From positions 1-64,000 of the IMG/VR virus record IMGVR_UViG_3300037424_001651: a DNA stretch of 64,000 nt; one strand, given 5' to 3'. The translations under genes and the position numbers were made by a program. The notes under the pieces are model-generated. The model saw only the letters and a list, made by a program, of their open reading frames with translations. It searched no databases and was not told the origin of the DNA. The stretch is from a virus. Its lineage: Duplodnaviria > Caudoviricetes. Shown one piece after another: positions 4,287-56,687 of the stretch (position 1 is its first letter; every line of letters starts with the position of its first letter).

Positions 4287-4775
4287 ATGAAGCACGTAGC
4301 ATGGACGTTTGTCTCTATCAGCTTGGTCATGGGCCTCCTCGCATGCGAGGCCAAAAAGTCCAAGGTTATCAGCGCGACTGGTGAGGATGCCGAGGCCGCG
4401 GATGCAGTGTCGGCCGATGGGCAGCTTCCGAAACCGGCGAAGACGTACACGCAAGTGACGGTCGTCAAGGAATTCGAGGAAGTGCGGTGCACGCGTTTCT
4501 TCGACTGCTTTCCCACCGAGCTTGTGGTGAAGATACAGAACGCGAAAGACGTCCCGGAGTGTGTGAACAACCGAATCGCAGACATCTACAACACACGCCG
4601 TGACGGCGAGGGCAAGCCGATGTTCTGCGAAACCGGTGAGACATTCCACAATGAGCAGGCGAACCTCTGTCTGGATTGGCTGCGAACTTCGCATTGCGGC
4701 GACTTCGTTCAGGCGTTCATGGCGACGGAACCCTTCGCAATCTGTCAGTTCGTGTGCACCACGCCTATGGACTGA
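4287..4775 (+). CDS. putative lipoprotein
   Basis: Signal peptide ending in lipobox-like LLAC. Confidence 0.65.
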   Translation: MKHVAWTFVSISLVMGLLACEAKKSKVISATGEDAEAADAVSADGQLPKPAKTYTQVTVVKEFEEVRCTRFFDCFPTELVVKIQNAKDVPECVNNRIADIYNTRRDGEGKPMFCETGETFHNEQANLCLDWLRTSHCGDFVQAFMATEPFAICQFVCTTPMD

Positions 4776-4784
4776 GCAAACGCC

Positions 4785-4802
4785 TTGTCCCTGACCCTGC
4801 CT
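4785..4802 (+). repeat. dispersed intergenic motif, copy 1
   Basis: TTGTCCCTGACCCTGCCT. Confidence 0.85.
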
Positions 4803-4827
4803 GTAGGCGGTGGTAAGAGGAGTGAAC

Positions 4828-5373
4828 ATGTCTGGTGATAACGACAGGGCCAAGGACAGCGCGGCCCCGGTGAAGAATGCCGTCACGCAAACCGTGGAGG
4901 CGACAGCCCGTGTCCTTGGTGATGGCATGGTACAAGTGATCCAAGAGAACCGTGATGCACCCTACATCTACATCCCCATCGTCCGCCGCATGCTCGACGC
5001 GCTGGAGCGTGTTAGTTCGATGCCCGTGTTGGGTGCGAGCGACCTCGGCGTTGGTGAGGACGGTTACGGTATGATCCGTGCAGGTAATCTCATGTCTGCA
5101 CGTGGCCTGCGTGACGATCCGGTCATGGCCGGTGTGCAAGGCGTGCTTGAAGTCCTTCAGCCTCTACTTGATCAGGTGATGGGGCAACAGCGCATTCCGG
5201 CGTTGCGGGCTGTGCTGGAGTCGCCGTTGTGCTCGGGTGAAGTCAAGCAGCGCGCGGCTGATGAACTCTCGCGTCTCGTCATGGACTTCATCGCCCCCGA
5301 GGCTGTGGATGCCGCAGCAGAATTTCTGGGAGCAGGACTCGATGGTGTTGTTCCGACCGTGGCCCCAAGGTGA
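4828..5373 (+). CDS. hypothetical protein
   Basis: SD GAGGAG + ATG. Confidence 0.6.
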   Translation: MSGDNDRAKDSAAPVKNAVTQTVEATARVLGDGMVQVIQENRDAPYIYIPIVRRMLDALERVSSMPVLGASDLGVGEDGYGMIRAGNLMSARGLRDDPVMAGVQGVLEVLQPLLDQVMGQQRIPALRAVLESPLCSGEVKQRAADELSRLVMDFIAPEAVDAAAEFLGAGLDGVVPTVAPR

Positions 5374-5472
5374 AACCATGAAAGTAGAAGTCAAGAACCA
5401 CTGCAATGGTGTCTTCTGCGAAAAGAAAGCCTTGAGGTAGTTCTTCTGACAACCGAAAGAAAGTAGGCAACC

Positions 5473-5757
5473 ATGAAAATTCGCACTGTGAATGCAGACT
5501 ACACTCTCGCAGTTGAGTCTGTAGACTATGATATCAGCAACAATGAAGTCAACGTACTTCTGACCAACACAGAAAATGGCGAGACAGTTTTCTTGATTTT
5601 TCACGAGGTAGACTGTCGCGAAATAGCTCATGCGCTGGCTCCGCACATTCGCCATGCGTGTTACGAGAAGGGCGCACATCCTGCGGCGCGCGAACTTCGG
5701 GATCTTACAAGTCTTGTCGAGAACACGATCCACGAGAGCGAGAAGGAGAAGCCATGA
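5473..5757 (+). CDS. hypothetical protein
   Basis: ORF track, coupled to next gene. Confidence 0.55.
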   Translation: MKIRTVNADYTLAVESVDYDISNNEVNVLLTNTENGETVFLIFHEVDCREIAHALAPHIRHACYEKGAHPAARELRDLTSLVENTIHESEKEKP

Positions 5758-5887
5758 AAATAACTACAGACATCATGTCACAAGACGGACGAAGAACCGA
5801 AGCTGATATCATGAACAAACACGCACTAGCGAGCGGGGACCGTGATCGTGCCTTGGAGAAGCTCCGCAAGGCGCTGGAGGGAACGGC

Positions 5888-6670
5888 ATGAACATTTACA
5901 TCCCGACAGTCTTTGGCGACGTGAACATTCACCCGGGGCGCGACGATGCCAAGGGTGTCACCGAAGTACAAACCACGAAGCTCACGCCGACTGAGAAAAA
6001 AGCTGTCATCGGCTTGCTCAACAAGTACACGGTGAATGCCGACCCGAAGGATCTGGAGGACAAGACCTTCCACATCGGCGAGAACTTTGCTGTGGTGCAC
6101 AGCTACCTTGTGAAACAGTTAAAAGCTGGGAAGAAGACGGTGACTGCGGCGAAGCTTGTAGATGGCAGCCTCATCGAGGTTCACGATGAAGAGCAGCTTC
6201 GCAAGCTCGGTGAGAGCGGCAAGGCGAAGGCTGTGACCACGACCTCGACGCCTGCACGTGGCTGTCCGATGCCGCGCTTCGAGCCTCGTGAGATCCGTGC
6301 GAGCCGGGTGCTGCAAGAGTTCCTCAACCCGGTACAGCTTCAAGACTTCGCGAACTACGGCGCGTTCGTGGTCTTCGGCGGCGACAGCGGTCACCGCTTT
6401 CGCATCACACATCGCTTTTCCCGTCTCTTCGAGAACCCCGATGAGCGCTGGTTCGTCAAGGACTTGGACGAGAATCGTGGTTACTGTTCGCACATCACCG
6501 AGCTTCCGCCGAGCGAGGAGATGCTGGCGCTCATGATCGCCATTGCCTTCAAGGAGAACTGGTGGCTGCATGAGCGGGGCTGCGACGACCCGGCGACCGG
6601 TGGCCCGGCGATTCGGCCCCTTTTGCGGGGTGACATCACTCCGATCCTCACGGCCATCGAGTTCGCGTGA
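5888..6670 (+). CDS. conserved-looking hypothetical protein
   Basis: ATGA overlap; strongly coding-like codon use. Confidence 0.7.
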   Translation: MNIYIPTVFGDVNIHPGRDDAKGVTEVQTTKLTPTEKKAVIGLLNKYTVNADPKDLEDKTFHIGENFAVVHSYLVKQLKAGKKTVTAAKLVDGSLIEVHDEEQLRKLGESGKAKAVTTTSTPARGCPMPRFEPREIRASRVLQEFLNPVQLQDFANYGAFVVFGGDSGHRFRITHRFSRLFENPDERWFVKDLDENRGYCSHITELPPSEEMLALMIAIAFKENWWLHERGCDDPATGGPAIRPLLRGDITPILTAIEFA

Positions 6671-11726: not shown

Positions 11727-11802
11727 TGGGGCGTCGTCCAGTTGGTAGGACGCGACACTTTGGATGTCGATGTCGCAGGTTCGAGTCCTGCCGCCCCAGC
11801 CA
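11727..11802 (+). tRNA. tRNA-Gln(TTG) with CCA
   Basis: TGGGGCG/CGCCCCA, G73, CGACA-CTTTGGA-TGTCG, encoded CCA. Confidence 0.95.
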
Positions 11803-11810
11803 CAAAATCT

Positions 11811-11885
11811 GGACCCGTAGCACAACGGATAGTGTGGCGGCCTCCGAAGCCGTGGATACAGGTTCAAGTCCTGTCGGGTTCACCA
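11811..11885 (+). tRNA. tRNA-Arg(CCG) with CCA
   Basis: GCGGC-CTCCGAA-GCCGT arm, A20, TTCAAGT T-loop. Confidence 0.93.
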
Positions 11886-11886
11886 T

Positions 11887-11960
11887 GGGCCACTAGCTCA
11901 TCTGGATAGAGCACAAAATTCCTAATTTTGGGGTGGCCGGTTCGACTCCGGCGTGGCCTA
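11887..11960 (+). tRNA. tRNA-Arg(CCT)
   Basis: CAAAA-TTCCTAA-TTTTG arm, A20, TTCGACT T-loop. Confidence 0.93.
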
Positions 11961-11966
11961 CTGAAT

Positions 11967-12040
11967 GGACCCGTAGCTTAACTGGATCAAGCGCCGCACT
12001 ACGGATGCGGAGACTGGAGGTTCGAGTCCTCTCGGGTCTA
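11967..12040 (+). tRNA. tRNA-Arg(ACG)
   Basis: CCGCA-CTACGGA-TGCGG arm, A20. Confidence 0.94.
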
Positions 12041-12044
12041 CTGA

Positions 12045-12127
12045 GGGAGCGTTGGCGAATGGATTACGCCCCTGGATTTCTAATCCAGCGCCGAGAGGCA
12101 TTCCCGGTTCGAGTCCGGGCGCTCCTA
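12045..12127 (+). tRNA. tRNA-Arg(TCT) with long variable arm
   Basis: CTGGA-TTTCTAA-TCCAG arm; 14-nt variable region CGCCGAGAGGCATT. Confidence 0.85.
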
Positions 12128-13057: not shown

Positions 13058-13653
13058 GCGACACCTTCTTGTCCCGGCCCTGCCTTGATGAGGGTAAACA
13101 GCGCAGTCTTTATATCGCGTGTATGCCCGGTATGTCTGCGAGTGTCGATGTGAAGGGATCGTTCTTCCGTCCGATCTTGCGGGGGCTTCTCAAGGAGATG
13201 CAGGTCACGGCGCATTTTATCCGTTCTTGCGATCCTTCAATCAAGCAAACCAAGCGGTTCATTGAAAGAAATGGTAGTGTTGACCTTGGTCGCGCGCTGT
13301 TGCTTGTGGCGAAGAGCTTTGGGGGCGTGCGTATGCTCGTGGACGTCATCCCACATACGAAGGTTCAGTATGGGCGCGTGGCTCTTTTGAGTATTGATCC
13401 GTACGGGAAAGGTTATAGCTTGCATCGCAAGCCTATTATCTTACCGAAGTGGTGGTACAGCGACCCTTACGCCAAGGCAGTTAATTTCTATCAGGACAAC
13501 AAGGGCTTTCGTGGGGCGAAGGTCGTTGGTGCGGCCAACAAGAAACTGAGCTGCTTCCCGGACGGGGAGAAGGTCGCGCACATGAACATCGTTTTTCACC
13601 CCGCGGTCAAAGAGGCTGCGTCTGGCTTAGTGGCGTGGTTGTTGGAGCGGTAG
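13054..13653 (+). CDS. basic hypothetical protein
   Basis: ATGA overlap at 13054. Confidence 0.55.
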   Translation: MSDTFLSRPCLDEGKQRSLYIACMPGMSASVDVKGSFFRPILRGLLKEMQVTAHFIRSCDPSIKQTKRFIERNGSVDLGRALLLVAKSFGGVRMLVDVIPHTKVQYGRVALLSIDPYGKGYSLHRKPIILPKWWYSDPYAKAVNFYQDNKGFRGAKVVGAANKKLSCFPDGEKVAHMNIVFHPAVKEAASGLVAWLLER

Positions 13654-23525: not shown

Positions 23526-24763
23526 TCGACGTTCAATTCACTGCGGAGCAGCTACGCGCTGTTGAACTTGCGCTGTGCGAGCCTGTGAGCATCCTCACGG
23601 GCGGCCCGGGGACAGGGAAGACCACGGTCTGTCGTAAGATTGTGGAGGAGTTCCGAGCGGCGCGAAAGCGCGTGCTGTGCGCCGCGCCGACCGGGAAGGC
23701 GAGCCGACGGTTACAAGAACAGACAGGCTTCGCCTCTACCATTCACCGCTTGCTGGAATGGAGTCATCAGGAATCCGGGTTCACGCGCGACAACATGAAT
23801 CCACTCCAGGCCGATGCAGTTATCGTGGATGAGGCGTCCATGATCGACGTGGTGCTCATGGCATCGCTTCTGGACGCTATTGCGACTGGTACGCATCTTA
23901 TCGTGGTGGGGGACGCAGATCAGTTACCCCCGGTGGGGCCAGGTAGTGTGCTGCGTGATATGATCGCCTCTGGGATCATCCCAGTCACCCGGCTGACGGT
24001 GGTGCAGCGTTTCAAGGAGTCCGAGCGGCTGAAGGTGAACGCGCACCGTATCGTAAAGGGCGACGCGCTTTACCTGGATCGCCACAACAACGACGACTTC
24101 TTTTTCATGGAGCGCGAGGACCTGCAGCAAGCTGCGGATACAATTGTGAACCTCGTGACGAAGATCATTCCACGTCGCCATCAGTTCGACCCGGTGAACG
24201 ACGTGCAGGTGCTCTGCCCCATGAAAAAAGGCATCCTCGGGGTACACAACCTCAACGAGTTGTTGCGCGAGCGCCTCAACCCCGAAGAGTATGGGATGCC
24301 GGTTGCGAAGGTGTCGACGTACAACGTCGACAAGGATGTTTCTACCATCCGGACTTTTCGCATGGGCGACAAGGTCATGCAGATGCGCAACAACTACAAA
24401 ATCGGTGTCTTTAACGGTGAGGTAGGTCGTATTACGGCCATCGACACAGGAAAGCTGACTACGGTTACCTTCGACGAGCAAGACAAGTTCTATGACTTCC
24501 ATGCACTCAAGGAGCTTCAGCTTTGTTACGCTTCGACGGTACACAAGAGCCAAGGCTCGGAGTATCCCTGTGTCATCCTCGTGATGCACAACACGCACTG
24601 GAACATGCTTTTCAGGGCGCTGCTCTATACCGGCGTCACACGCGCCAAGAAGGTGGTCTACATCGTGGGCAACAAGCGTGGCCTCTACCAAGCTCTGAGT
24701 AACGACAGGCCTGTGCTGCGCAGAACGAGCTTGACTGAACGACTTCTAGAGGGTGCGTCATGA
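23513..24763 (+). CDS. recD2: RecD2 C-terminal SF1B helicase half
   Basis: GGPGTGKTT, DEASM, GDADQL, YASTVHKSQGSEY, LLYTGVTR; GTG 23513 with SD AAGGGGA. Confidence 0.92.
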   Translation: MALLIDVQFTAEQLRAVELALCEPVSILTGGPGTGKTTVCRKIVEEFRAARKRVLCAAPTGKASRRLQEQTGFASTIHRLLEWSHQESGFTRDNMNPLQADAVIVDEASMIDVVLMASLLDAIATGTHLIVVGDADQLPPVGPGSVLRDMIASGIIPVTRLTVVQRFKESERLKVNAHRIVKGDALYLDRHNNDDFFFMEREDLQQAADTIVNLVTKIIPRRHQFDPVNDVQVLCPMKKGILGVHNLNELLRERLNPEEYGMPVAKVSTYNVDKDVSTIRTFRMGDKVMQMRNNYKIGVFNGEVGRITAIDTGKLTTVTFDEQDKFYDFHALKELQLCYASTVHKSQGSEYPCVILVMHNTHWNMLFRALLYTGVTRAKKVVYIVGNKRGLYQALSNDRPVLRRTSLTERLLEGAS

Positions 24764-25236
24764 GGCAGGGTAAGGGCCAAGTGGTGCGGCGCATCACGGT
24801 CGAGTGGGAAGACGGCGACACTGAATACATCGAGGGCAATGATGCTGTGCGGTGGTGGTCGATCATCGACACTATCGTGCGGATGCACATAGCGGCGAAC
24901 CCGAATACGCCGGAGCGCCGCAACTTCGGCGGTACATGGAAGAAGGTTGGCGATGGCGAAGACTAAGTCCACGAAGCGCCGCCACCGCCGCGTCCCGTTG
25001 CCACAATACCGGAACCGATCTCGTGCGCGCGGAGGTTTGCGTGATGGCGCATGTGAAAACAGGAGATCCTTTCATCGATGCCGTCTTCGACGGGATCGAA
25101 ACTGAGGACATGGCGGACGCGGACGGGGAATATCCGCTGGTCTTCCAGTGTCCACAGTGCGGATGCTTGCCGTACGTCTATCGGTCTGCGCACCCCGAGA
25201 ACGGCGTCGCGTGTCCACAGTGCGGAAGGAGCAGTG

Positions 25237-25800
25237 ATGCACTTCGACATCGCTAAGCACACGATCTTCAAGACGGTGACTGGGAGCCACGCCTACGGGT
25301 TGGCCACGCCGGAGTCCGACACGGACTACCGCGGCGTATGCGTGCCGCCGCAGGTGTTGGTGCTCTCGCCGTTCAAGAACTTCGAGCAGTACGAGGGTGA
25401 CCCCGCATCGGATGACGACACGGTCATCTACAGCATCCTGAAGTTCGTCAAGCTGGCGTCCGAGGCGAACCCATCGTTGCTGGAGCTTTTCTACATCGAC
25501 GAGCGCCACTGGGTCCAGACCACGCCGTGGTGGGATACGCTGTACGAGCACCGAGATTGGTTTCTCTCGACGCGGGTCGTGCACGCGTTCAGCGGCTATG
25601 CAGCCGCGCAGTTAAAGCGGATGCGTAACCACGCCCGCTGGATAGAGAACCCGCCCACAGAGCCGAAGCCCGAGGACTTCAATCTGACGCACGCAATGCT
25701 GCTTGGCAAAGACGAGATCGGGGCCTACGACTGGCTCAACGAACAAGAGGTCGGGCACTTCCGGTCCGTGACGGTCATCTTACCTGTGGTGAGAAGCTAG
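25237..25800 (+). CDS. RlaP-like Pol-beta nucleotidyltransferase, apparently truncated or frameshifted
   Basis: GSHAYGLATPESDTDYRG, KFVKLA..ANP, FSGYA..Q; helical C-terminal region missing. Confidence 0.8.
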   Translation: MHFDIAKHTIFKTVTGSHAYGLATPESDTDYRGVCVPPQVLVLSPFKNFEQYEGDPASDDDTVIYSILKFVKLASEANPSLLELFYIDERHWVQTTPWWDTLYEHRDWFLSTRVVHAFSGYAAAQLKRMRNHARWIENPPTEPKPEDFNLTHAMLLGKDEIGAYDWLNEQEVGHFRSVTVILPVVRS

Positions 25801-25856
25801 AAGGAATCGATTTCCTTACACAGGAGATCATGCAGGACTTCTGGCGCAACCGCTAG

Positions 25857-25872
25857 TTGTCCCTGACCCTGC
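25857..25872 (+). repeat. dispersed intergenic motif, copy 2
   Basis: TTGTCCCTGACCCTGC. Confidence 0.85.
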
Positions 25873-25910
25873 ATCGGTTGTAGGTGTAGTGTGGTGCGCA
25901 GGAGGCGCGT

Positions 25911-33813: not shown

Positions 33814-34566
33814 GTGAATGTGGGCGCACAAGCAACACGGGGGCCGATCCTTGACAACGTCTACAACACACGCGATATGACCATCAGTGTTATCCGCGGC
33901 TTGAGCTATGGCCGCACTGGTGTCGGCAAAACCTACTTCGGTGGGACCTTCCCGCGACCCCTGTTTCTGAGTGCGCAGACCGAAGGTGGCATCGTCACCC
34001 TGCGTAACAAGGGTGTGGATGCTATTGACATCTATGACTCCACCGATATGCTCAATGCGCTGCAAGAACTGCGCGCGCTGGCGAATGTGGGCAAGCTGAC
34101 GGATCGCTGGAGCACGCTGGTCATCGACTCCATCACTCTCTACTGCGAACAGTACATCAACGAGCTGGTGGAGCAAGTGCCGGGCAACCGCAAGATGATG
34201 CGGCGGGTAGACTGGGGTCAACTCGATAGCCACCTGCGCACCCTCACGGTCATGGCACACGAGTTGCCCATGAACGTGTGGTGGATGGCGCTGGAGGACC
34301 ACGAGAAGGACGGCGAGACTGGGAAGGTAGTTAGCGCGTACCCGATGCTGTACGGCAAACGGTCCGCGAAGATTCTGGCGAGCATGGATGTGGTCCTGTG
34401 GCACGAGATGGTCAAGACCGGGAAGAACCTGGACAATATCTACCGGTGTCACACCCAGCCGTATCTGTACTACGACGCAAAAGATCGTTTCGGTGCATTA
34501 CCAAGTTCAATGGATAACCCAAGCTATCAGAAGATGGCGGATGCCATTGGGCTGCAACAACCCTAA
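33814..34566 (+). CDS. AAA_24 / Sak4-like ATPase (annealase)
   Basis: YGRTGVGKT, LVIDSIT, WGQL, AKDR. Confidence 0.85.
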   Translation: MNVGAQATRGPILDNVYNTRDMTISVIRGLSYGRTGVGKTYFGGTFPRPLFLSAQTEGGIVTLRNKGVDAIDIYDSTDMLNALQELRALANVGKLTDRWSTLVIDSITLYCEQYINELVEQVPGNRKMMRRVDWGQLDSHLRTLTVMAHELPMNVWWMALEDHEKDGETGKVVSAYPMLYGKRSAKILASMDVVLWHEMVKTGKNLDNIYRCHTQPYLYYDAKDRFGALPSSMDNPSYQKMADAIGLQQP

Positions 34567-34589: not shown

Positions 34590-35171
34590 ATGCCGAAGAT
34601 TGGACTAGACCTGACAACCGTGGACGCCGTCAGTGGCGGTGGCTTCGTCAACGAGATCCTGCCGCCTGAGCAGGGTCCGTACGTCTTGCGGGTCAAAGAA
34701 GCAGTCGAGCAAAAGAGCAAGGCCGGGAACCCCATGGCCGTGTTCGACTTCGAGGTCGTGGAGAACCACGGCCAGGAAGCTGACGAGTTCGTGGACCACA
34801 GCGGGAAGACCTTCCGCCAGTGGTATCCGCTCATCCCCCGCCAGCCCATGGTCGGCCGGATCAAGGCACTTGCAAATGCTTGCGATGTGCCGTACGATAG
34901 GCAGGGTCTGGACTTGGACGACTTTTTGGATGCGGTACTCGAATGCGATTTGACGGTCGACACCAGCGGCGATGGCCGGGAGTACAACAGGATCGAGAAT
35001 CCTCGGCTCCCCCCTGCGGCTGGCGGCGATGTGGGAGGGGACGACCCCGGTGAGGATGCGAATCCCCCAGCGGAGACTCCCGCAACCAGCTCACAAGCTC
35101 GGCGTGCACCGAGCCGTGGGCGGACGGCCACGACGCGTCAACCGAGTCCTCCGCGCCGGAACGTCCGGTAG
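34590..35171 (+). CDS. DUF669-like phage SSB
   Basis: LPP..GPY..RVKE...KSKAGNPM...FEV; low-complexity tail; follows the Sak4-like gene. Confidence 0.8.
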   Translation: MPKIGLDLTTVDAVSGGGFVNEILPPEQGPYVLRVKEAVEQKSKAGNPMAVFDFEVVENHGQEADEFVDHSGKTFRQWYPLIPRQPMVGRIKALANACDVPYDRQGLDLDDFLDAVLECDLTVDTSGDGREYNRIENPRLPPAAGGDVGGDDPGEDANPPAETPATSSQARRAPSRGRTATTRQPSPPRRNVR

Positions 35172-35176
35172 GAAGA

Positions 35177-35361
35177 GCCACGTCTCCCGGTGGCGGCGAG
35201 CTTCGGCTTGTCCGTCGCGCGGGTTTTCGTGGAGGCAGGGTCAGGGACAAGAACGGGGATTGCGCTTCGGCGCATAACCGGTCCCCCGGGTGACCGAGTC
35301 TTCAGCATGGCGGGCTGGAGGTGCTCGGTCACCTGCTCCACGTAATTCCGAACACGGGAGG
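35177..35361 (+). ncRNA. candidate multi-branched structured RNA
   Basis: Four hairpins, two cUUCGg loops, long-range closing stem. Confidence 0.55.
35233..35250 (-). repeat. dispersed intergenic motif, copy 3
   Basis: Reverse complement TTGTCCCTGACCCTGCCT, identical to copy 1. Confidence 0.85.
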
Positions 35362-35366
35362 ATTAG

Positions 35367-35909
35367 GTGCGCATCGCATTTGATGTGGATGGCGTCCTGC
35401 GTGATCTGATGGCGGTCTACGCGCCGCACGTCGACCACAGTGTGGACGAGATTACGACTTACGATTCCGCGCTGAACTTCGCAGGCGGATTGGACCAGTT
35501 CCTGGAGCTGCTGGACGGTCAGCGCTGCTGGACGCTGGCCAAACCGCATCCGCACTTGCTCGGATTGTACAAGCACATCGAGGCCCACGGCCATACGATC
35601 CTCATCGCTACGGCCATCAGCACTGAGGCGGGGCGGCAAGGCACATTGGAGTGGCTTTGCAAGCACGATGTCAACTACGACGAGCTTCACTTCTGCGTAG
35701 ATAAGCTCCAGGTCCGGTTTGACGCCATCATCGAGGATTACCCCAGCATGGCCCTTGCGGCGGCACGCGCAGGCTGTGCGGCGTTCCTGGTCCACCGACC
35801 GTGGACCGCGAATGTGGAAATCAAGCATCCGAACTTGTTCAGGCTGCCGCCGGACGAGGCTGCGCTTGGTATGGTGATGGAGGTACTGGACGGGCGCAGC
35901 GGTAAGTAG
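35367..35909 (+). CDS. HAD 5'(3')-deoxyribonucleotidase (NT5C-like)
   Basis: FDVDGVL, IATA, WL..H, IIED. Confidence 0.88.
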   Translation: MRIAFDVDGVLRDLMAVYAPHVDHSVDEITTYDSALNFAGGLDQFLELLDGQRCWTLAKPHPHLLGLYKHIEAHGHTILIATAISTEAGRQGTLEWLCKHDVNYDELHFCVDKLQVRFDAIIEDYPSMALAAARAGCAAFLVHRPWTANVEIKHPNLFRLPPDEAALGMVMEVLDGRSGK

Positions 35910-36002
35910 TCCTTGCACGGCAAGGCGAACGGAGAACGATCTGTCCTGCACGGGTGCGGGTCACGATACCTCGCCTCCGTTCGCCTTGCGGCACAGGGAC
36001 AC

Positions 36003-36020
36003 TTGTCTCTGACCCTGCCT
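36003..36020 (+). repeat. dispersed intergenic motif, copy 4
   Basis: TTGTCTCTGACCCTGCCT. Confidence 0.8.
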
Positions 36021-36488: not shown

Positions 36489-36856
36489 AGGTACACGTGA
36501 AGTGGCAGTTCGAGTGTGCGGCAAAGTTACCTGTTGATCCTGTGGGTCGCGGCCACAAGCAGGAAATCGAGTTGGCGGTTGTGCGCGGTCAAGATCCAAG
36601 GCTGGATGAAGTTGTGCAGCGTGGTCTGGGTAGGCGTGGGAAGCAGTGCTTGGCGCTGAACATGGCAGATGCTGTTTTTGGTAGGGGTCACCATGAGATT
36701 GTGTGCGGCTATTGCGGGGTGCCAGCTTTTCGCTTGTGGGTGTTTCCCTCGTCGCAAGCAGGTACATACACGGTTTTGTATCGGCAAGTCGAGAAGAGTT
36801 CTGACGTTGGCGTTGTAACTGTGGAGGTGGTAGATGCCGAGCCGGACGAAGACTGA
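36485..36856 (+). CDS. hypothetical protein
   Basis: GTGA overlap. Confidence 0.45.
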   Translation: MKVHVKWQFECAAKLPVDPVGRGHKQEIELAVVRGQDPRLDEVVQRGLGRRGKQCLALNMADAVFGRGHHEIVCGYCGVPAFRLWVFPSSQAGTYTVLYRQVEKSSDVGVVTVEVVDAEPDED

Positions 36857-39800
36857 TTGGCGGGCGAAGAAGTCGGAGGCGTGTCAGGATTGTCCGCTTT
36901 GCGACGAACCGATGGTACGCGGTGAGGGCAAACTGGATGGGCTTGGCCTTGTCATTATGGGTGAGGCTCCGGCACGGGAAGAGGTACGACAGAGCCGTCC
37001 CTTTGTTGGTGAGACAGGTCAGAAGGTGCTCGATCCGTTGTTGGAGCAGCACTTGCCGCAGAACGGGTGTCCCATCTCGCGTGAGGGTGTGTACATCACT
37101 AATGCATTACTTTGCCCATTGAATAAGAGTACCGTTACCCCCAAGCAGATCGAGGCTGCTATTGCATGCTGCAATCAGCGCCGTGTGGAGGAGCGCGAAC
37201 TTGTAGGGGCGAAGTTCATTATCGGCATGGGTGCGACTGCTGCACAGGCGCTCATTGGCGAAAAGACCGTCAAGACCTATCGCGGCGCAATCATGGATAG
37301 TCCATTCGGCCTGTGTTCAATCACGTATCACCCCACGTTCATCTTGCGTGGGAAGAAGACCGGTTCGCGCGTGCAGTCGGATGTGTACTATCAGGTGATT
37401 TTTCAAGATCTCGTCAACGCATATCGTATGGTTGATCCGACGGTGCCAGCCGACGAGCGCATGTTCCGTCCGGCGTACGACATCGCGCCGCCGATGGAAG
37501 ATGTGTTGGGCTTTCTCGATTGGATCCGCGCGAACAAGAAGTTGTGCTGTGTCGACATCGAGTGCGATAGCATTGACCCACTGGCCGCGAACTTGACGAT
37601 CATCGGGTTCGGGGCTGAGGTAGACGGTGTAGTCGTGTCGCATGCTGTTCCGGTCTGGGAAGGGTCCGGGTACACTACCGCTGAGCTTGAGGAGTTTTAT
37701 GCCACCTTTGCGGCGCTGGAAGCCGATCCGGCAGTTCCGAAGCTGTTTCACAATTTCACTTACGACGTCACGGTCCTGGAGCGCCACGGTATGCCAACAC
37801 GTGGCAAGGTCGAGGACACGCTCATTTTGCACTACTGTTTGTTCCCTGAACTCATGCACGATTTGCAGTCCGTGGCCACGTCTTATCTCAACATTGGTCC
37901 GTGGAAGGTGAACTTCCGTCGTCGGGAGAGTGCGCGCAGGAAGAAGTACGAGGCGCTGGCGCAGTGGCAGGAGAAAGCGGAGGAAGCGTCCGTCACGTTC
38001 ATGGAGTTTCGCAAGCATATCAAGGTCGTCGAGCCGCCCGGAAAGAAGCCGCTGGTGGGGAAAAAGTTGGCGGCGGCCTTTACGGGGCTGGGGCTGGATG
38101 AGATTGCGTTGGCCCGTTTCAAGAAGGCGCGTACAGCTCGTAAGCGTGCCGACAAGAAGCTGGTGCAACTTGAAGAGGAGATCAACAAGGAGTTCTACGA
38201 CGAGGAAGGCCGGGACATCAACAGCATCGAGGAGCTGCATTACAATGCCCTGGACGTTGCATGTACGCTCGGTTCGTGGCTGGCGATGCAAGAGGTTGAG
38301 CGAGAAGACCTCGACAAGATCACTGGTGAGACGACGCTGAAGGAACCGAAGCTCTACGAGACGGATGTGGCTGTTGCCGACATCGCGCGGCAGATGCAAC
38401 TACGGGGGTTGCCAGTCATCGGCGACGCACGTACGACCATGCAGACGAGCTTGCGCAAGCAGGTGGCGGAGCATGAGGTAGCTATTCAAGGCTTTTTGTG
38501 TGATGTCTTGGCCGCTGCTCAGCAGGCGAACCCTGAATGGTTCGATGGGCGCTTTGCTGATCCGAAGGCGTTGGAGGCCGAGATCAAGGCTGTGCGCGCG
38601 GCTGAAGAGGCTGCTTCGCAGCAACGCCGTGCAGATAAGGGTGGGAGCACTGTAGTGAAGGCTGTGGATTCGCGTGTGGAGGGCAATGCTACTGGGCCGC
38701 TTCCGATACTTAGCTTCGAGGCCGCGCAGTGGGATGAGCTGTCGATGCGGGATCGTAGTTGTGTACAGCTAGCTGCCATTTGTGCTGCCGGGGTCGTAGA
38801 CCCGAAGAAGGCCTTCAAGATCATGAGTCCGGAGCATAAGTCGTTCTTGCTTGATGCGTATGAGGTGCCTGTAGACGAGCTGACAGCCAAGACCGGCCAA
38901 CGTAAGATGGACAAGGACAATCTCGTCAAGTATAGGGGCGCGTACGACGTAGTACGATCCATGCTAGATTACAGTACGGCGCACAAGCTCTTGCGCACGT
39001 TCGTGGAAGGCAAGAAGATCATTATCGGTGAAGACGGGCGCATTCACCCGTCATGGAACTCCAAAGGCAGCACGAATCCCGAGGAGTACGGCACGGTTAC
39101 TGGCCGTTGGGCCAGTACCCCGAACGTCCAGAACTGGCCCTACGAGATGCGCGCCATGATTGGCTTTCGTGACGATGAAGACTGGACGCTGGTCGGTGCA
39201 GACTTCAGCCAATTGGAGTTTCGCATCCTTGCGTGGTTCGCTGGACAGACGGATCTGGTCATCGCCTTTAACGAAGGTCCGATCCTAACGCTGGACGGGG
39301 CTAACCCCGAGCATAACAAGCTACTGAAGGCTCGGAACGAAGAGAAGAAGAATCTCAAGGAGTGTCCCGAGGGCCTTGACGTGGACGGCTTGAAGCTGGG
39401 CGAGTTCAAGAACCTCATCCCAGATTCGCATCGTGATCTCTGGATGCAGCGCATCTTGCGCGTCGAGAAGAACGCTAAGGGCGAGATCTTTGTCGAGCGT
39501 GACATTCATTCTGCTACTGCCGTGAGCATCTTCGGAAACGAGTATATCGACGCGCCCCTCAAAAAGTACAAGCTGTTGCGCAACCTCACCAAGCGTGCGA
39601 CCTATGGTGGCATGTACGGTGGCAATGCAGATACGTTGTACAGCGCATTGCATCGGGACTTCCCAGGCACAAGCAAAACGCAGTGTGAGTTGTTCTTGGA
39701 AAAGTTCGACCGGATCTGGCCGGATATTGTCTCGTGGCGCAAGGATTCACATGACCGGGCAACGAAGGATGGAGAGCTGCGCACGCCGCTACTCGGGCGC

Positions 39801-40115
39801 TGCCGTCTCTTCCCGCTGCACCGACCGGAAGCTACGGTCGCCTTCAATTGGCCCATTCAAGCCACGGCCGGGGACATTATGAACACGAGCTTGCGCAGGC
39901 TCTATAACTACGTTCAGTCCCGGGACGACTTACGCGGCCGGGCCTACCCGATCATTCAAGTACACGACGCTATCTACTGGGAAGTCCGTCAGGAGATCGC
40001 CGAGGAGTTCCGGGCCGTCGTCGAGGAGCAGATGTCTTGTTACCTGGAGCACGAGACGGTGTGGATGAACTTCCCGGTCGAGGCCAAGATCGGCAAGATC
40101 TGGAGCGAGACATGA
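36834..40115 (+). CDS. polA: family A DNA polymerase with N-terminal family-4 UDG and 3'-5' exonuclease
   Basis: CxxC..GEAP..FVG..N..C..YHP; DIECD, FHNFTYD, YNALD; DFSQLE, KRATYGGMYG, QATAGDI, VHD. Confidence 0.95.
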   Translation: MPSRTKTDWRAKKSEACQDCPLCDEPMVRGEGKLDGLGLVIMGEAPAREEVRQSRPFVGETGQKVLDPLLEQHLPQNGCPISREGVYITNALLCPLNKSTVTPKQIEAAIACCNQRRVEERELVGAKFIIGMGATAAQALIGEKTVKTYRGAIMDSPFGLCSITYHPTFILRGKKTGSRVQSDVYYQVIFQDLVNAYRMVDPTVPADERMFRPAYDIAPPMEDVLGFLDWIRANKKLCCVDIECDSIDPLAANLTIIGFGAEVDGVVVSHAVPVWEGSGYTTAELEEFYATFAALEADPAVPKLFHNFTYDVTVLERHGMPTRGKVEDTLILHYCLFPELMHDLQSVATSYLNIGPWKVNFRRRESARRKKYEALAQWQEKAEEASVTFMEFRKHIKVVEPPGKKPLVGKKLAAAFTGLGLDEIALARFKKARTARKRADKKLVQLEEEINKEFYDEEGRDINSIEELHYNALDVACTLGSWLAMQEVEREDLDKITGETTLKEPKLYETDVAVADIARQMQLRGLPVIGDARTTMQTSLRKQVAEHEVAIQGFLCDVLAAAQQANPEWFDGRFADPKALEAEIKAVRAAEEAASQQRRADKGGSTVVKAVDSRVEGNATGPLPILSFEAAQWDELSMRDRSCVQLAAICAAGVVDPKKAFKIMSPEHKSFLLDAYEVPVDELTAKTGQRKMDKDNLVKYRGAYDVVRSMLDYSTAHKLLRTFVEGKKIIIGEDGRIHPSWNSKGSTNPEEYGTVTGRWASTPNVQNWPYEMRAMIGFRDDEDWTLVGADFSQLEFRILAWFAGQTDLVIAFNEGPILTLDGANPEHNKLLKARNEEKKNLKECPEGLDVDGLKLGEFKNLIPDSHRDLWMQRILRVEKNAKGEIFVERDIHSATAVSIFGNEYIDAPLKKYKLLRNLTKRATYGGMYGGNADTLYSALHRDFPGTSKTQCELFLEKFDRIWPDIVSWRKDSHDRATKDGELRTPLLGRCRLFPLHRPEATVAFNWPIQATAGDIMNTSLRRLYNYVQSRDDLRGRAYPIIQVHDAIYWEVRQEIAEEFRAVVEEQMSCYLEHETVWMNFPVEAKIGKIWSET

Positions 40116-44635: not shown

Positions 44636-44956
44636 ATGCTGCCGAAAGTGAAGGTCAATGAGTTTAACTCGAAGGTGTTGAAAGCCAAGAAGCCTGTAGT
44701 CGTAGACTTCAGCGCTGATTGGTGTGAGCCGTGCAAGATGCTGGAGCCGATCCTCGACAAGATCGCTGACAAGTACAAGGAAGACGTGGAGTTCTACTCC
44801 GCGGATGCCGACGAGATCGGCGAAGTCATGGCCCGGTACAAGCTGTTTAGCTTGCCCACTGTTGCCCTGTTCCGCGCAGGCCAGCTCGTGGGAACCGCAG
44901 TAGGTGTCGACAACAACTCCGCGGCCGAGATCGAGGCGCTGTTGCAGCCGAATTGA
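44636..44956 (+). CDS. trxA: thioredoxin
   Basis: VVVDFSADWCEPCKML.P, SLPT. Confidence 0.93.
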   Translation: MLPKVKVNEFNSKVLKAKKPVVVDFSADWCEPCKMLEPILDKIADKYKEDVEFYSADADEIGEVMARYKLFSLPTVALFRAGQLVGTAVGVDNNSAAEIEALLQPN

Positions 44957-44964
44957 CCGCGATC

Positions 44965-44981
44965 TTGTCCTGACCCTGCCT
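44965..44981 (+). repeat. dispersed intergenic motif, copy 5
   Basis: TTGTCC-TGACCCTGCCT. Confidence 0.8.
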
Positions 44982-45028
44982 TCGGGAACGTGTTTTCGCG
45001 GACTTACGCGCACAAATTCACTTAATTC

Positions 45029-45058
45029 TTGCAATCCTGGCACGACTGCGTTTATATT
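45029..45058 (+). promoter_or_regulatory. sigma70-like promoter
   Basis: TTGCAA-18 nt-TATATT. Confidence 0.5.
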
Positions 45059-45083
45059 AGAGTCGATTCAAGGAGGCTCTTCT

Positions 45084-45806
45084 ATGAACCGATTTGCATG
45101 GCTCGTCTTTTTGTCCGTGGTCTTTTACGGCTGCGGTGGTCCTACCCTCTACAAAACAGTTCGCTATTCTCGGTTGTCGGTGAACACCGTCATGCTTGGG
45201 ACGCAGGAGGCTGATAAGGTCAATGGCGAAGCGTTCACGGAGTCAAGCGATACCATCGCGAAGGCCGCATATGACGAGCATGTGCTTCCGGTCGCTACCG
45301 AAATGGGCCTCGAAGGCGAAGACGACGTGTGTTCGCTGGATGGGTTGACGATTACTGACGATGCCAAGGCTGAGCTTCAAGAAGCTTGCGACGCTGGGTT
45401 CGCACAATGGTGTACCGACATCAAGCCTATTTGGCACGACCACTGCTTACGTACGTGTATCATTCATACGGTGAAGGATGGTCTACGCGCAGTCGAGAAG
45501 ACGGTAAATGCGCTTCAGTACGTTCAAGAGAATTACTCGGCGGACTCCAAGTTCAAGCAACTCAAGGCAGACGACAAGCTCAAATGGACGGATTATGCTG
45601 GACAGGTCAAGAACTGGTTTGTGATGGCACTGGTCCAACTTGGGTCGCTTGTTCACCTTCTGCACGAGACTGGAATCCCCATTCCCGAAGCGCTCAACGT
45701 TATCACTGACATTTCGGGCGGTTTCGTGAACATGCCGAATAACTACGAGGAACCAGCGTGTGAATGTACGCCTTACCCCGAGAATTCGGGCTGCGAAGGA
45801 GACTGA
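45084..45806 (+). CDS. putative lipoprotein
   Basis: SD AAGGAGG; signal peptide with FYGC lipobox-like site. Confidence 0.7.
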   Translation: MNRFAWLVFLSVVFYGCGGPTLYKTVRYSRLSVNTVMLGTQEADKVNGEAFTESSDTIAKAAYDEHVLPVATEMGLEGEDDVCSLDGLTITDDAKAELQEACDAGFAQWCTDIKPIWHDHCLRTCIIHTVKDGLRAVEKTVNALQYVQENYSADSKFKQLKADDKLKWTDYAGQVKNWFVMALVQLGSLVHLLHETGIPIPEALNVITDISGGFVNMPNNYEEPACECTPYPENSGCEGD

Positions 45807-45935
45807 CATGGCACGACCGAAATTGTTCACTGATAGAGAACTCCTCCAGATGGGCGGCAAGCCCTTCCAAGCTCCGTCACCAGTCGGGCGATCCTACATC
45901 AAAACGCTGGAATCGGCTGTTTCGTAGGGGTTATC

Positions 45936-46169
45936 ATGGCTGATTCACCTGCTGCGGTTGAAGCGTATACTATCGAAGGCTACGACGATACGTCTCGTGC
46001 TGGTATTACAGTCGCGACTGTGGTGGGCATTGGCATGTTGACGCTGGCTTTAGGGACTGTGCTCTACTTCGGGTTGCGCCGCCCTCGTCAGGCTCGTGGA
46101 CGCTCTCCGTACCATCCTGCCACAACATGGGCTACTGAAGCCGTGCCGTATTACAGCGGGAGGGGATAG
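45936..46169 (+). CDS. small single-pass membrane protein
   Basis: TM followed by RRPR. Confidence 0.6.
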   Translation: MADSPAAVEAYTIEGYDDTSRAGITVATVVGIGMLTLALGTVLYFGLRRPRQARGRSPYHPATTWATEAVPYYSGRG

Positions 46170-47454: not shown

Positions 47455-47471
47455 AGGCAGGGTAAGGACAA
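47455..47471 (-). repeat. dispersed intergenic motif, copy 6
   Basis: Reverse complement TTGTCCTTACCCTGCCT. Confidence 0.7.
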
Positions 47472-47508
47472 GAACTCAATGTGCAGGCAACAATAAGGAG
47501 GAATAGCA

Positions 47509-54547: not shown

Positions 54548-54565
54548 TGCACGCGCCGCTCACAG

Positions 54566-54582
54566 TTGTCCCGACCCTGCCT
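54566..54582 (+). repeat. dispersed intergenic motif, copy 7
   Basis: TTGTCCC-GACCCTGCCT. Confidence 0.75.
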
Positions 54583-55704: not shown

Positions 55705-56106
55705 ATGGCCCAAAAAACAAGTAGCAAGAAGCGGACGAGTAGCAAGAAGCGGACGAAGTCTGGCGACAAGTGCAAAGGCAAGATCTACTGGAACGCGGTC
55801 GCAATGGCGCAAGGGACCAAGCATAAGACGGCTGCAAGTACGCAGGTCGATCATTGTGTCCGTACTTGTCGTGTCGGGCGCGATGTTTGCGAAAGCACTG
55901 TGAAGTCCGGCCTGAAGGGGCGCAGGAAGGCTCGCAAGAGCGGTGTGCCTTATGGACGCAAGCTGTCGCAGACCAAGGCCGCGAAGGCGGCTCGTACAGG
56001 CTTCAAGACGGCTTCCAAGTCGTGCAAGCGCGCGAGCAAGAGCCGAGTGGGCTTCCTGTCCTGCATGAAGAAGACGGCCCCGAGGGAGATCGCGAAGAAG
56101 ATGTAA
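55705..56106 (+). CDS. very basic Lys/Arg-rich, Cys-containing protein (candidate DNA-condensing core protein)
   Basis: SSKKRT x2, high K/R content. Confidence 0.55.
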   Translation: MAQKTSSKKRTSSKKRTKSGDKCKGKIYWNAVAMAQGTKHKTAASTQVDHCVRTCRVGRDVCESTVKSGLKGRRKARKSGVPYGRKLSQTKAAKAARTGFKTASKSCKRASKSRVGFLSCMKKTAPREIAKKM

Positions 56107-56122
56107 GCAGGGTCAGGAACAA
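56107..56122 (-). repeat. dispersed intergenic motif, copy 8
   Basis: Reverse complement TTGTTCCTGACCCTGC. Confidence 0.75.
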
Positions 56123-56141
56123 TTTGAGGAGGAGGGTCACC

Positions 56142-56687
56142 ATGGCCGAGAAGTGGCGACGTTTTACTGCGTCCGATAATCCGTGGTCCCACGAGCCAGC
56201 AGAAGGTTGGCGGTCCAAGAACTGGGAGATTATCTTCCGGCCGAACTTCCATATCGTGTCCGGCTTGGTCCGGGCACGGTATGTGCGGCCCGACGGGTAT
56301 TTGCCGTGGGCTTACTTCCTTGTTTACAGCAGCGGCAAGCTTGGGTGGGACTGGCCGGAGCGCGTGCCGAAGTATGTTGAGGACAAGGTCAACGCCTTGA
56401 CGCGCGCGCAAGCTGGATCGTTTGGGGACGGCGCGCCGAAACGTCAGGGATATCGAGTTTTATACGCTCCGTTGGGTTCTTCCCGAAAGGTAGAGTGGAG
56501 CACACACGCAAACGCGCGTGAGGCAGTGAAGGAAGCACGTCGGTTGGTCCGGCATCGCGGTGTTTCAGGGGCACACGCTCGGTATGCACCGTGGATCAGC
56601 GTCATCGTTTTGGGGCCGCGCGGTAAGCTTTACTACGAGGGTTGGAACGAATTATTCGGCCCATCTGAGAGTTGGCGGGACGTTTAG
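56142..56687 (+). CDS. two-domain hypothetical protein (AGSFG linker)
   Basis: SD GAGGAGG + ATG. Confidence 0.65.
   Translation: MAEKWRRFTASDNPWSHEPAEGWRSKNWEIIFRPNFHIVSGLVRARYVRPDGYLPWAYFLVYSSGKLGWDWPERVPKYVEDKVNALTRAQAGSFGDGAPKRQGYRVLYAPLGSSRKVEWSTHANAREAVKEARRLVRHRGVSGAHARYAPWISVIVLGPRGKLYYEGWNELFGPSESWRDV

Follow-up and report, generated by a model that had tools for sequence, protein, structure and literature searches.

A structured, probably Shine-Dalgarno-sequestering RNA leader in a phage replication module and a dispersed 19-nt motif that it carries

The gap at positions 35172-35366 (+ strand) of a 64-kb stretch of phage DNA, the whole of which we call the window, is a real structured RNA. 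It lies directly upstream of an NT5C-like gene. The reading that we favor, which we judge to be about evenly balanced between right and wrong, is that of a two-fold translational leader of this gene whose exposed strand would also act as an antisense regulator, like the c4 RNA of phage P1. The best-supported part of this reading, in which we have good confidence, is the cis-acting one, namely an SD-sequestering, probably two-state leader of the NT5C-like gene.

Genomic setting and evidence for a structured RNA

The window is the first part of a 75.5-kb IMG/VR virus record estimated to be approximately 83% complete, and no DNA match to it, near or distant, was found among the 50,697 phage records of a cultured-phage database. 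The 35172-35366 gap sits within a co-directional replication module, which begins with genes for an SNF2 helicase, a PD-(D/E)XK nuclease, an RNase T-like exonuclease and an uncharacterised product, followed by an AAA_24 gene (33814-34566) and a DUF669/SSB-like gene (34590-35171, +). The 195-nt gap runs from the stop codon of the latter (TAG, 35169-71) to the GTG start codon (35367-69) of the NT5C-like gene (35367-35909, +), which encodes a protein of the 5'(3')-deoxyribonucleotidase family (Pfam PF06941, E 8.8e-6). A stand-alone TSCPD-domain gene, a small gene and the UDG-PolA gene (36834-40115, +) follow. The annotated TTG start of the TSCPD gene at 35913 is probably wrong, and GTG 36036 agrees with the relatives. 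The first-pass annotation had described the downstream genes as a nucleotidase/RNR/PolA operon; the supposed RNR is only the stand-alone TSCPD-domain protein. The UDG-PolA gene is a single ORF of 1093 aa that combines a uracil-DNA glycosylase-superfamily domain with a 3'-5' exonuclease and a family A DNA polymerase; this fusion is retained in relatives at 1067 aa, and its protein shares at most approximately 32% identity with that of any cultured phage. Gene calls outside the replication module come from a self-trained codon model and are rough. Six tRNA genes lie at 2126-2199 and 11727-12127 (+) of the window, five of them in one cluster.

The NT5C-like protein has seven other cluster representatives among 5.8 billion proteins, with 49-69% identity (eight homologues in total). 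Every homologue with readable DNA carries the leader upstream of the NT5C-like gene, in a gap of 170-205 nt, and the order AAA_24, SSB-like, gap, NT5C-like, TSCPD and PolA is common to all relatives read. In syntenic relatives whose NT5C-like proteins are approximately 62% identical, the spacer is approximately 90% identical. The relatives originate from soil, sediment and aquatic metagenomes. Single-protein and alignment-based locus searches of IMG/VR returned no relatives, and the 15 matches of a pattern scan of IMG/VR were all due to chance (the covariance model scored none of the 15). The same kind of scan gave 97 matches in JGI metagenomes, one of which is real (L036, with a leader identical to that of L009), and 99 matches in 185,579 species genomes, none of which is real, and hence no prophage copy. 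The 75.5-kb record holds no second copy of the whole leader. Four DNA sequencing runs yielded short, near-identical fragments with three single-base differences, which added no diversity. Judging from these searches, the leader family is so far confined to one small, rare clade of uncultured phages.

The + strand of 35172-35366 has an MFE of -99.3 kcal/mol, compared with -79.6 +/- 4.4 kcal/mol for 200 dinucleotide shuffles (z -4.46), none of which folded as well. The reverse strand of the same interval folds worse (-79.8, z -3.3) and the leader structure contains several invariant G.U pairs, which together indicate that the structure is specific to the gene-sense strand. We then assessed covariation in seven distinct sequences (the window, L005, L007, L008, L009, L010 and L011). 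Standard pairs fill 98.0% of 449 pair cells, a share that falls to approximately 45% if the 3' partners are shifted by 1-3 columns. Both sides have changed in 15 of 66 pairs, a number reached by none of 500 shuffles. These compensatory changes are located in P1, both junction hairpins, the anti-SD/SD helix and the long-range helix. Covariance model R1, for which six sequences were used, scores 205.7 bits at 35172-35366 of the window, 201-216 bits on the six close sequences and 63 bits (E ~1e-12) on the most distant one, L011.

Rfam 15 contains no match to the leader, either at the gathering score across the whole window or at E<=10 within 35000-35500, and the loci of the relatives L008-L011 gave no Rfam match at E<=1. 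The proposal of a new cis-regulatory anti-SD RNA or a stand-alone non-coding RNA is therefore supported by covariation, folding, the absence of an Rfam family and the SD pairing described below. On sequence grounds, the leader is a new RNA family that would use a known kind of mechanism.

Other readings of the gap were rejected. A small protein gene does not fit, as every + frame of every sequence contains stop codons and 1-nt indels break the frame. An intrinsic terminator or attenuator was considered on account of the UUUU that follows P1; this stretch occurs only in the window, the relatives having UACG, UUUG or UUCUG in its place, and a terminator scan found none. A promoter scan likewise found no sigma-70 promoter in the gap.

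In six relatives, the nucleotide sequence of the last ~22 nt of the SSB-like gene (35150-35171, +) does not vary, and it can fold into a small CCGGA/UCCGG hairpin, so that the start of the leader may fall inside this upstream gene.

Architecture of the leader and its two predicted folds

Near the 5' end of the leader, whose elements all lie on the + strand, GCCACG (35177-35182) is the partner of the switching strand in an alternative fold (A4 columns 7-12 with 65-70; 97.6% paired, two compensatory pairs). It is followed by the anti-SD UCUCCC (35183-35188), which in the MFE structure pairs with 35356-61 in a helix for which the relatives show 97.6% pairing and one pair with changes on both strands. 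The P1 hairpin (35190-35218; helix 3, 100% paired, two compensatory pairs) has a UUCG loop, an invariant base and a covarying tip. The switching strand CGUGGAG (35228-35234) can pair either with 35336-42, giving a closed three-way junction, or with 35177-82, giving the alternative fold. It overlaps a purine-rich 19-mer (35233-35251), the master copy of the motif described in the next section, which forms the junction strand and the 5' side of the base of the next hairpin. Half of this 19-mer is unpaired and half is paired in the predicted closed fold, and it is invariant in six close relatives except for one U/A position. The next hairpin (35243-35287; P2 in the first-pass annotation) has internal loops and a covarying UUCG tip, and L011 has a short hairpin instead. 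The long hairpin that follows (35288-35334; formerly P3) has a conserved apical loop and 19 pairs, of which four are compensatory (helix 11, 98.5% paired); no convincing pseudoknot between this apical loop and the 5' region was found in the seven distinct sequences. Farther downstream are the 3' strand of the long-range helix, CUCCACG (35336-35342; helix 6, two compensatory pairs), and the SD GGGAGG (35356-35361) of the NT5C-like gene.

All stems that the first-pass annotation listed are present in the sequence where it placed them. The MFE structure contains its P1, the apical part of its P2 with the UUCG loop, its P3 with the inner stem, and the pairings 35228-34/35336-42 and 35183-88/35356-61. 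The base of P2, proposed as GGGGA/TCCCC, is drawn in another register in the consensus fold (35243-48/35281-85 together with 35254-56/35278-80), and we leave the choice of register undecided because the bases are invariant in close relatives. The local P0 hairpin (35177-81/35190-94) fared less well: the relatives are compatible with it (97% paired, one compensatory pair), but 84 of 500 shuffles equal it, and it competes with two other pairings of the same 5' bases.

In the MFE structure, the 5' CCUCCC pairs with the SD GGGAGG, and the helix 35228-34/35336-42 closes the three-way junction. The SD clamp, already suspected from the window, is kept with six base pairs in all sequences, including L011, in which it differs on both strands yet still forms six pairs (CUCUUC with GAGGAG). 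The helices of the alternative fold are 94% paired with three compensatory pairs, a level matched by one of 500 shuffles, while slid controls reach 29-58%. When the alternative helix is forced, the two folds differ by 0-6.6 kcal/mol, and the alternative fold is itself the MFE structure in L007 and L011. This fold dispenses with the strong SD clamp and hides part of the anti-SD in a longer 5' hairpin. At two positions of the switching strand (A4 columns 9/68/191 and 11/66/193), changes are matched in each of the two competing partners, and such triple covariation is expected of a switch. The leader is thus likely to be a two-state switch as far as comparative sequence analysis can tell; we grade this model as likely, short of proven, because the compensatory changes that support the alternative fold and the SD clamp all come from a single divergent lineage, L011. 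The open fold need not leave the SD fully free, since a short run of pyrimidines immediately 5' of it offers another pairing partner in some relatives.

A switch of this kind directly before a nucleotidase-family gene in a replication module raises the question of a small-molecule riboswitch, in which the junction would be an aptamer for a nucleotide-related ligand, the anti-SD/SD pairing and the competing helix would be the expression platform, and the 19-mer would have no connection with the other copies of the motif. The leader's size, junction architecture and invariant junction bases fit this reading, as do the two mutually exclusive conserved helices, which include the SD, with support for the second fold from one divergent sequence. 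On the other hand, the invariant junction strand corresponds exactly to the dispersed motif, so that its conservation is otherwise explained. Moreover, one junction hairpin is cut to a stub in L011, the Rfam searches revealed no resemblance to a known aptamer class, and the family is limited to one rare phage clade, as IMG/VR, JGI and the 185,579 species genomes provided a single further copy, identical to that of L009. A metabolite riboswitch is therefore the less likely explanation, and we regard it as improbable. Since the most conserved strand of the leader is a motif dispersed genome-wide, the likely effector shifts from a metabolite to an RNA or a protein.

A dispersed 19-nt motif and its possible readers

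Searching the window against itself, we found that 35233-51 has an exact 19-nt reverse-complement match at 4784-4802. A scan with up to three mismatches, which was also run on the whole record, yielded six copies of the motif as against 0.03 expected. Allowing 1-nt gaps raised the number to ten, of which at least eight lie clearly at gene boundaries. The motif adjoins SDs without covering them, occurs in both senses and lies 13-36 nt from start codons. Its ends are sharply defined, with complementarity stopping at the flanks, and 1-nt length differences in the middle of the motif are present in four of the ten window copies as well as in all complement sites of the L005 type.

Six copies (at 4784, 13068, 25856, 36002, 44964 and 54565) are of the complement type, and all of these are on the + mRNA strand, after a stop codon and between + genes; four of the six lie 2-24 nt before a clear SD (genes 4828, 25911, 36036 and 54597). 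The exact copy at 4784-4802 (+) is located 25 nt before ATG 4828 and 12 nt before its SD. The copy at 13068-13085 (+), 11 nt after a stop codon, has a 1-nt deletion and one wobble-compatible change, and that at 25856-25874 (+), with two terminal mismatches, directly follows a stop codon 36 nt before GTG 25911. At 36002-36020 (+), a copy with one G>A change, which gives a G.U pair, ends 2 nt before the SD of the TSCPD gene. The remaining two have a 1-nt deletion each and lie 8 nt after the stop codon of the thioredoxin gene (44964-44981, +) and 3 nt before an SD, 14 nt before ATG 54597 (54565-54582, +). The thioredoxin gene itself occupies 44636-44956 (+), and the ~1.2 kb after it (44957-46169) is without a confident gene call and includes an AT-rich, promoter-like stretch.

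Four copies, each at a gene boundary, are of the same sense as the leader, namely the leader itself and those at 24763, 47455 and 56105. The copy at 24763-24781 (+; two mismatches) overlaps the stop codon of a Dda-like helicase gene and the ATG (24760) of a 68-aa ORF, and that at 56105-56123 (+; three mismatches) lies between the stop codon at 56104-06 and an SD/ATG near 56143. The third, at 47455-47472 (+; 1-nt deletion and one mismatch), is ~35 nt before the start of gene 47509, inside a 292-nt gap that is unstructured (z +1.1) and partly taken up by a small ORF. Copies 24763 and 25856 flank a gene for a nucleotidyltransferase of the RlaP family (RNA repair pathway; 25078-25800, +), with the Dda-like helicase gene upstream.

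The leader and its sites change together between related phages. Base nine of the leader 19-mer is U in the window, L009 and L010 and A in L005, L007 and L008, and the site in the TSCPD leader mirrors it, with A opposite U and U opposite A. In L011, the leader strand has several differences and is one base shorter, and the TSCPD-leader site follows with a single G.U pair. In the relatives L228 and L229, the site homologous to 4784-4802 has a variant that is their own. L229 and L006 share a sample of origin, and the L229 site upstream of the gene-4828 homologue, a second putative target besides the TSCPD leader, matches the TSCPD-leader site of L005 in every base (L232 begins 19 nt before the gene, too late to include the site). 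Near this homologue, L229 also has a NusB-family gene and a Cas3-like gene (HD, DEAD and Cas3 C-terminal domains), at 608-1012 and 4559-6461; no NusB match was found in the record of the window. For the three leader types, the computed duplex between leader and cognate site is always the most stable one, by 3.5-8 kcal/mol. Co-variation between leader and site is equally expected with a common protein reader or with homogenisation by gene conversion, and is therefore not decisive alone.

Compared with the master copy, complement-type sites carry no internal substitutions other than G>A and T>C, which are compatible with G.U pairing, while the same-sense copies carry transversions. We estimate that a wobble-compatible pattern of this kind would arise by chance with a probability of roughly 0.001-0.01, counting ~4-6 independent events. 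The TSCPD-leader site, which contributes two or three of the wobble-compatible changes, also forms a local hairpin that could alone explain these. When the whole leader was cofolded with each of six target leaders of 50-70 nt, an intermolecular duplex was predicted every time (ddG -12 to -23 kcal/mol); the cofolded leader is predicted to adopt the alternative 5' fold, with the duplex forming despite the cost of opening the junction.

The main rival explanation is that the 19-nt motif is a protein-binding site, either a double-stranded DNA operator resembling a stoperator or an RNA site, for example for an RRM protein, in which case the leader would be a protein-controlled translational operator and the copies would not pair with each other as RNA. 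The occurrence of copies in both orientations (six versus four) is natural for a DNA site, and the sharp motif ends and the flanks without complementarity also speak for a protein reader. Repressor/stoperator systems and ESAS repeats offer known examples of site sets that change in concert from one phage to its relatives (PMC3203893). The phage also encodes an RRM_1 protein (1803-2123, +; Pfam E 7.5e-22). Such proteins are uncommon in phages, one relative's contig has one as well, and the protein encoded at 1803-2123 is a candidate reader of the motif. However, an RNA-binding protein would be unable to read both the purine and the pyrimidine version of the motif, and length variation of 1 nt in its middle is awkward for a rigid reader of DNA half-sites. 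The copies, moreover, lie 2-25 nt from SDs and away from promoters, none of which were found there by a promoter scan; the 75.5-kb record, ~83% complete, has no Phage_integrase match and only a sub-threshold HTH_3 match; and the substitutions in complement-type copies are without exception wobble-compatible. We consider a protein reader to be a doubtful, if serious, alternative.

A second conserved RNA structure, a hairpin of ~25 bp, is located at 35911-36001 (+) between the NT5C-like and TSCPD genes (31 pairs, eight of them with compensatory changes, in four sequences), and the motif copy at 36002-20 and the SD are directly 3' of it. RNase III is known to act on duplexes such as those of the 16S rRNA flanks and the T7 intercistronic sites, and the leader could correspondingly be an element of mRNA processing or stability: 35233-51 would pair with 36002-20 along the polycistronic RNA and loop out the NT5C-like cistron to give an RNase III substrate, the other copies pairing similarly. 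Two single genes do lie between a sense and a complement copy (24763/25856 and 35233/36002), a 19-bp duplex containing a single G.U pair is predicted, and the conserved 25-bp hairpin between the two latter copies is of the kind cut by RNase III. Against this, four mismatches would interrupt the 24763/25856 duplex, three of the complement copies lack a sense partner upstream, the alternating order of sense and complement copies along the genome is not significant (~0.12 by chance), and the SD clamp and the two-state 5' domain are left unexplained. A long-range duplex of the RNase III type around the cistron is possible and explains less; we think it quite unlikely to be the principal role of the leader.

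In the antisense reading that we favor, the leader would alternate between two folds. In the closed fold, CCUCCC would clamp the SD, with 35228-34/35336-42 closing the junction and its two hairpins. In the open fold, GCCACG would capture 35228-32 and the anti-SD would be drawn into a long 5' hairpin around P1, so that the junction opens and the clamp is lost. The junction strand 35233-51 may pair with the complement sites, in trans or along the polycistronic RNA, at the SDs of at least four, probably six, other phage genes, the next downstream gene included. Such pairing would block or process the initiation regions of the targets and simultaneously pull the leader into the open fold, following the same logic as P1 c4, an antisense regulator transcribed together with its targets. 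We infer that the RNA is transcribed, that it changes fold in vivo and that RNA-RNA pairing occurs at the complementary sites; such pairing would fit the SD-adjacent sites, the preference of complement copies for the sense strand, the wobble pattern and the fact that 1-nt bulges are tolerated. The extra same-sense copies (24763, 47455 and 56105) and the leader itself are unexplained by a model of one RNA with many targets.

It is tempting to speculate further that the leader is a dual-function RNA hub, with a 19-nt antisense seed acting on a scattered regulon of at least six phage genes, and that target pairing flips the leader and switches the nucleotidase gene on; we put this forward only tentatively. 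Distant phage modules would then be coupled purely by RNA-RNA contacts, with regulator and targets co-evolving as a specificity code between relatives. Dispersed short repeats near gene starts are a long-standing puzzle of phage genomes, and here such a repeat is physically tied to a large covarying RNA that carries its complement, which makes this RNA a concrete, testable candidate reader. Confirmation would mean a new RNA family as well as a phage that coordinates scattered genes by one antisense seed in an mRNA leader, and the three leader types are natural specificity variants suited to orthogonality tests. Should a protein be the reader instead, a defined 19-nt recognition site and a new SD-sequestering leader would still result.

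Comparison with known systems

With SD-sequestering riboswitch platforms and with the leaders of T4 genes 32 and 43, the leader shares a 5' anti-SD, a releasing helix and a place in a replication/nucleotide module. It differs from these platforms and operators in that it matches no known family and that its conserved 'pocket' strand is a dispersed repeat. The stoperators of Cluster A mycobacteriophages are asymmetric 13-14 bp sites at which the immunity repressor of temperate phages binds DNA, oriented according to the direction of transcription. Like them, the motif is present in many copies in short intergenic gaps and evolves in concert with its putative reader. Unlike them, it is of mixed orientation, varies in length by 1 nt and is SD-adjacent, and no repressor or integrase was found in the record.

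The c4 RNA of the immI operon (Rfam C4 family) is a structured RNA at the head of an operon, whose exposed bases complement sites beside the RBS farther downstream on the same transcript, and in which regulator and targets change together between phages. It is a stable small RNA that is cut out by RNase P and represses in trans. The c4 RNA of P1/P7 is reported to pair with sites by the icd RBS (PMC8198154, citing Citron and Schuster, 1990). Similarly, 35233-51 has its complement at 36002-20, which ends 2 nt short of the next gene's SD, and leader and target co-vary between related phages in three leader types, as a shared protein reader would also predict. In contrast to c4, however, the leader has no sequence or structure match to the Rfam C4 model, measures ~190 nt, contains a three-way junction and would itself sequester the SD of the gene behind it. 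Its complements span at least 50 kb of the genome, where those of c4 stay within one operon; same-sense copies exist as well, and no immunity function is apparent, with neither a repressor nor an integrase found in the record.

The SAS and extended SAS (ESAS) of Cluster K mycobacteriophages are short asymmetric repeats that occur in one phage group only, a few bases from the starts of a subset of genes (PMC3203893). Conservation extends across subclusters, each of which has variants of its own, and the authors did not commit themselves as to whether the partner of the repeats is a phage-encoded RNA or a protein; since departures from the inverted repeat of ESAS break its pairing, they favored a DNA-binding protein there (PMC3203893). 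The motif described here is likewise a short repeat near the starts of a gene subset, clade-specific and with variants. SAS contain the SD, lie 3-7 bp from the start and have nearly all one orientation, whereas this motif lies beside the SD and in both senses. Unlike in ESAS, departures here keep the pairing intact, and one of the copies forms part of a large covarying RNA structure. By analogy, P1/P7 c4 and SAS/ESAS are the nearest analogues of this leader and its motif in logic.
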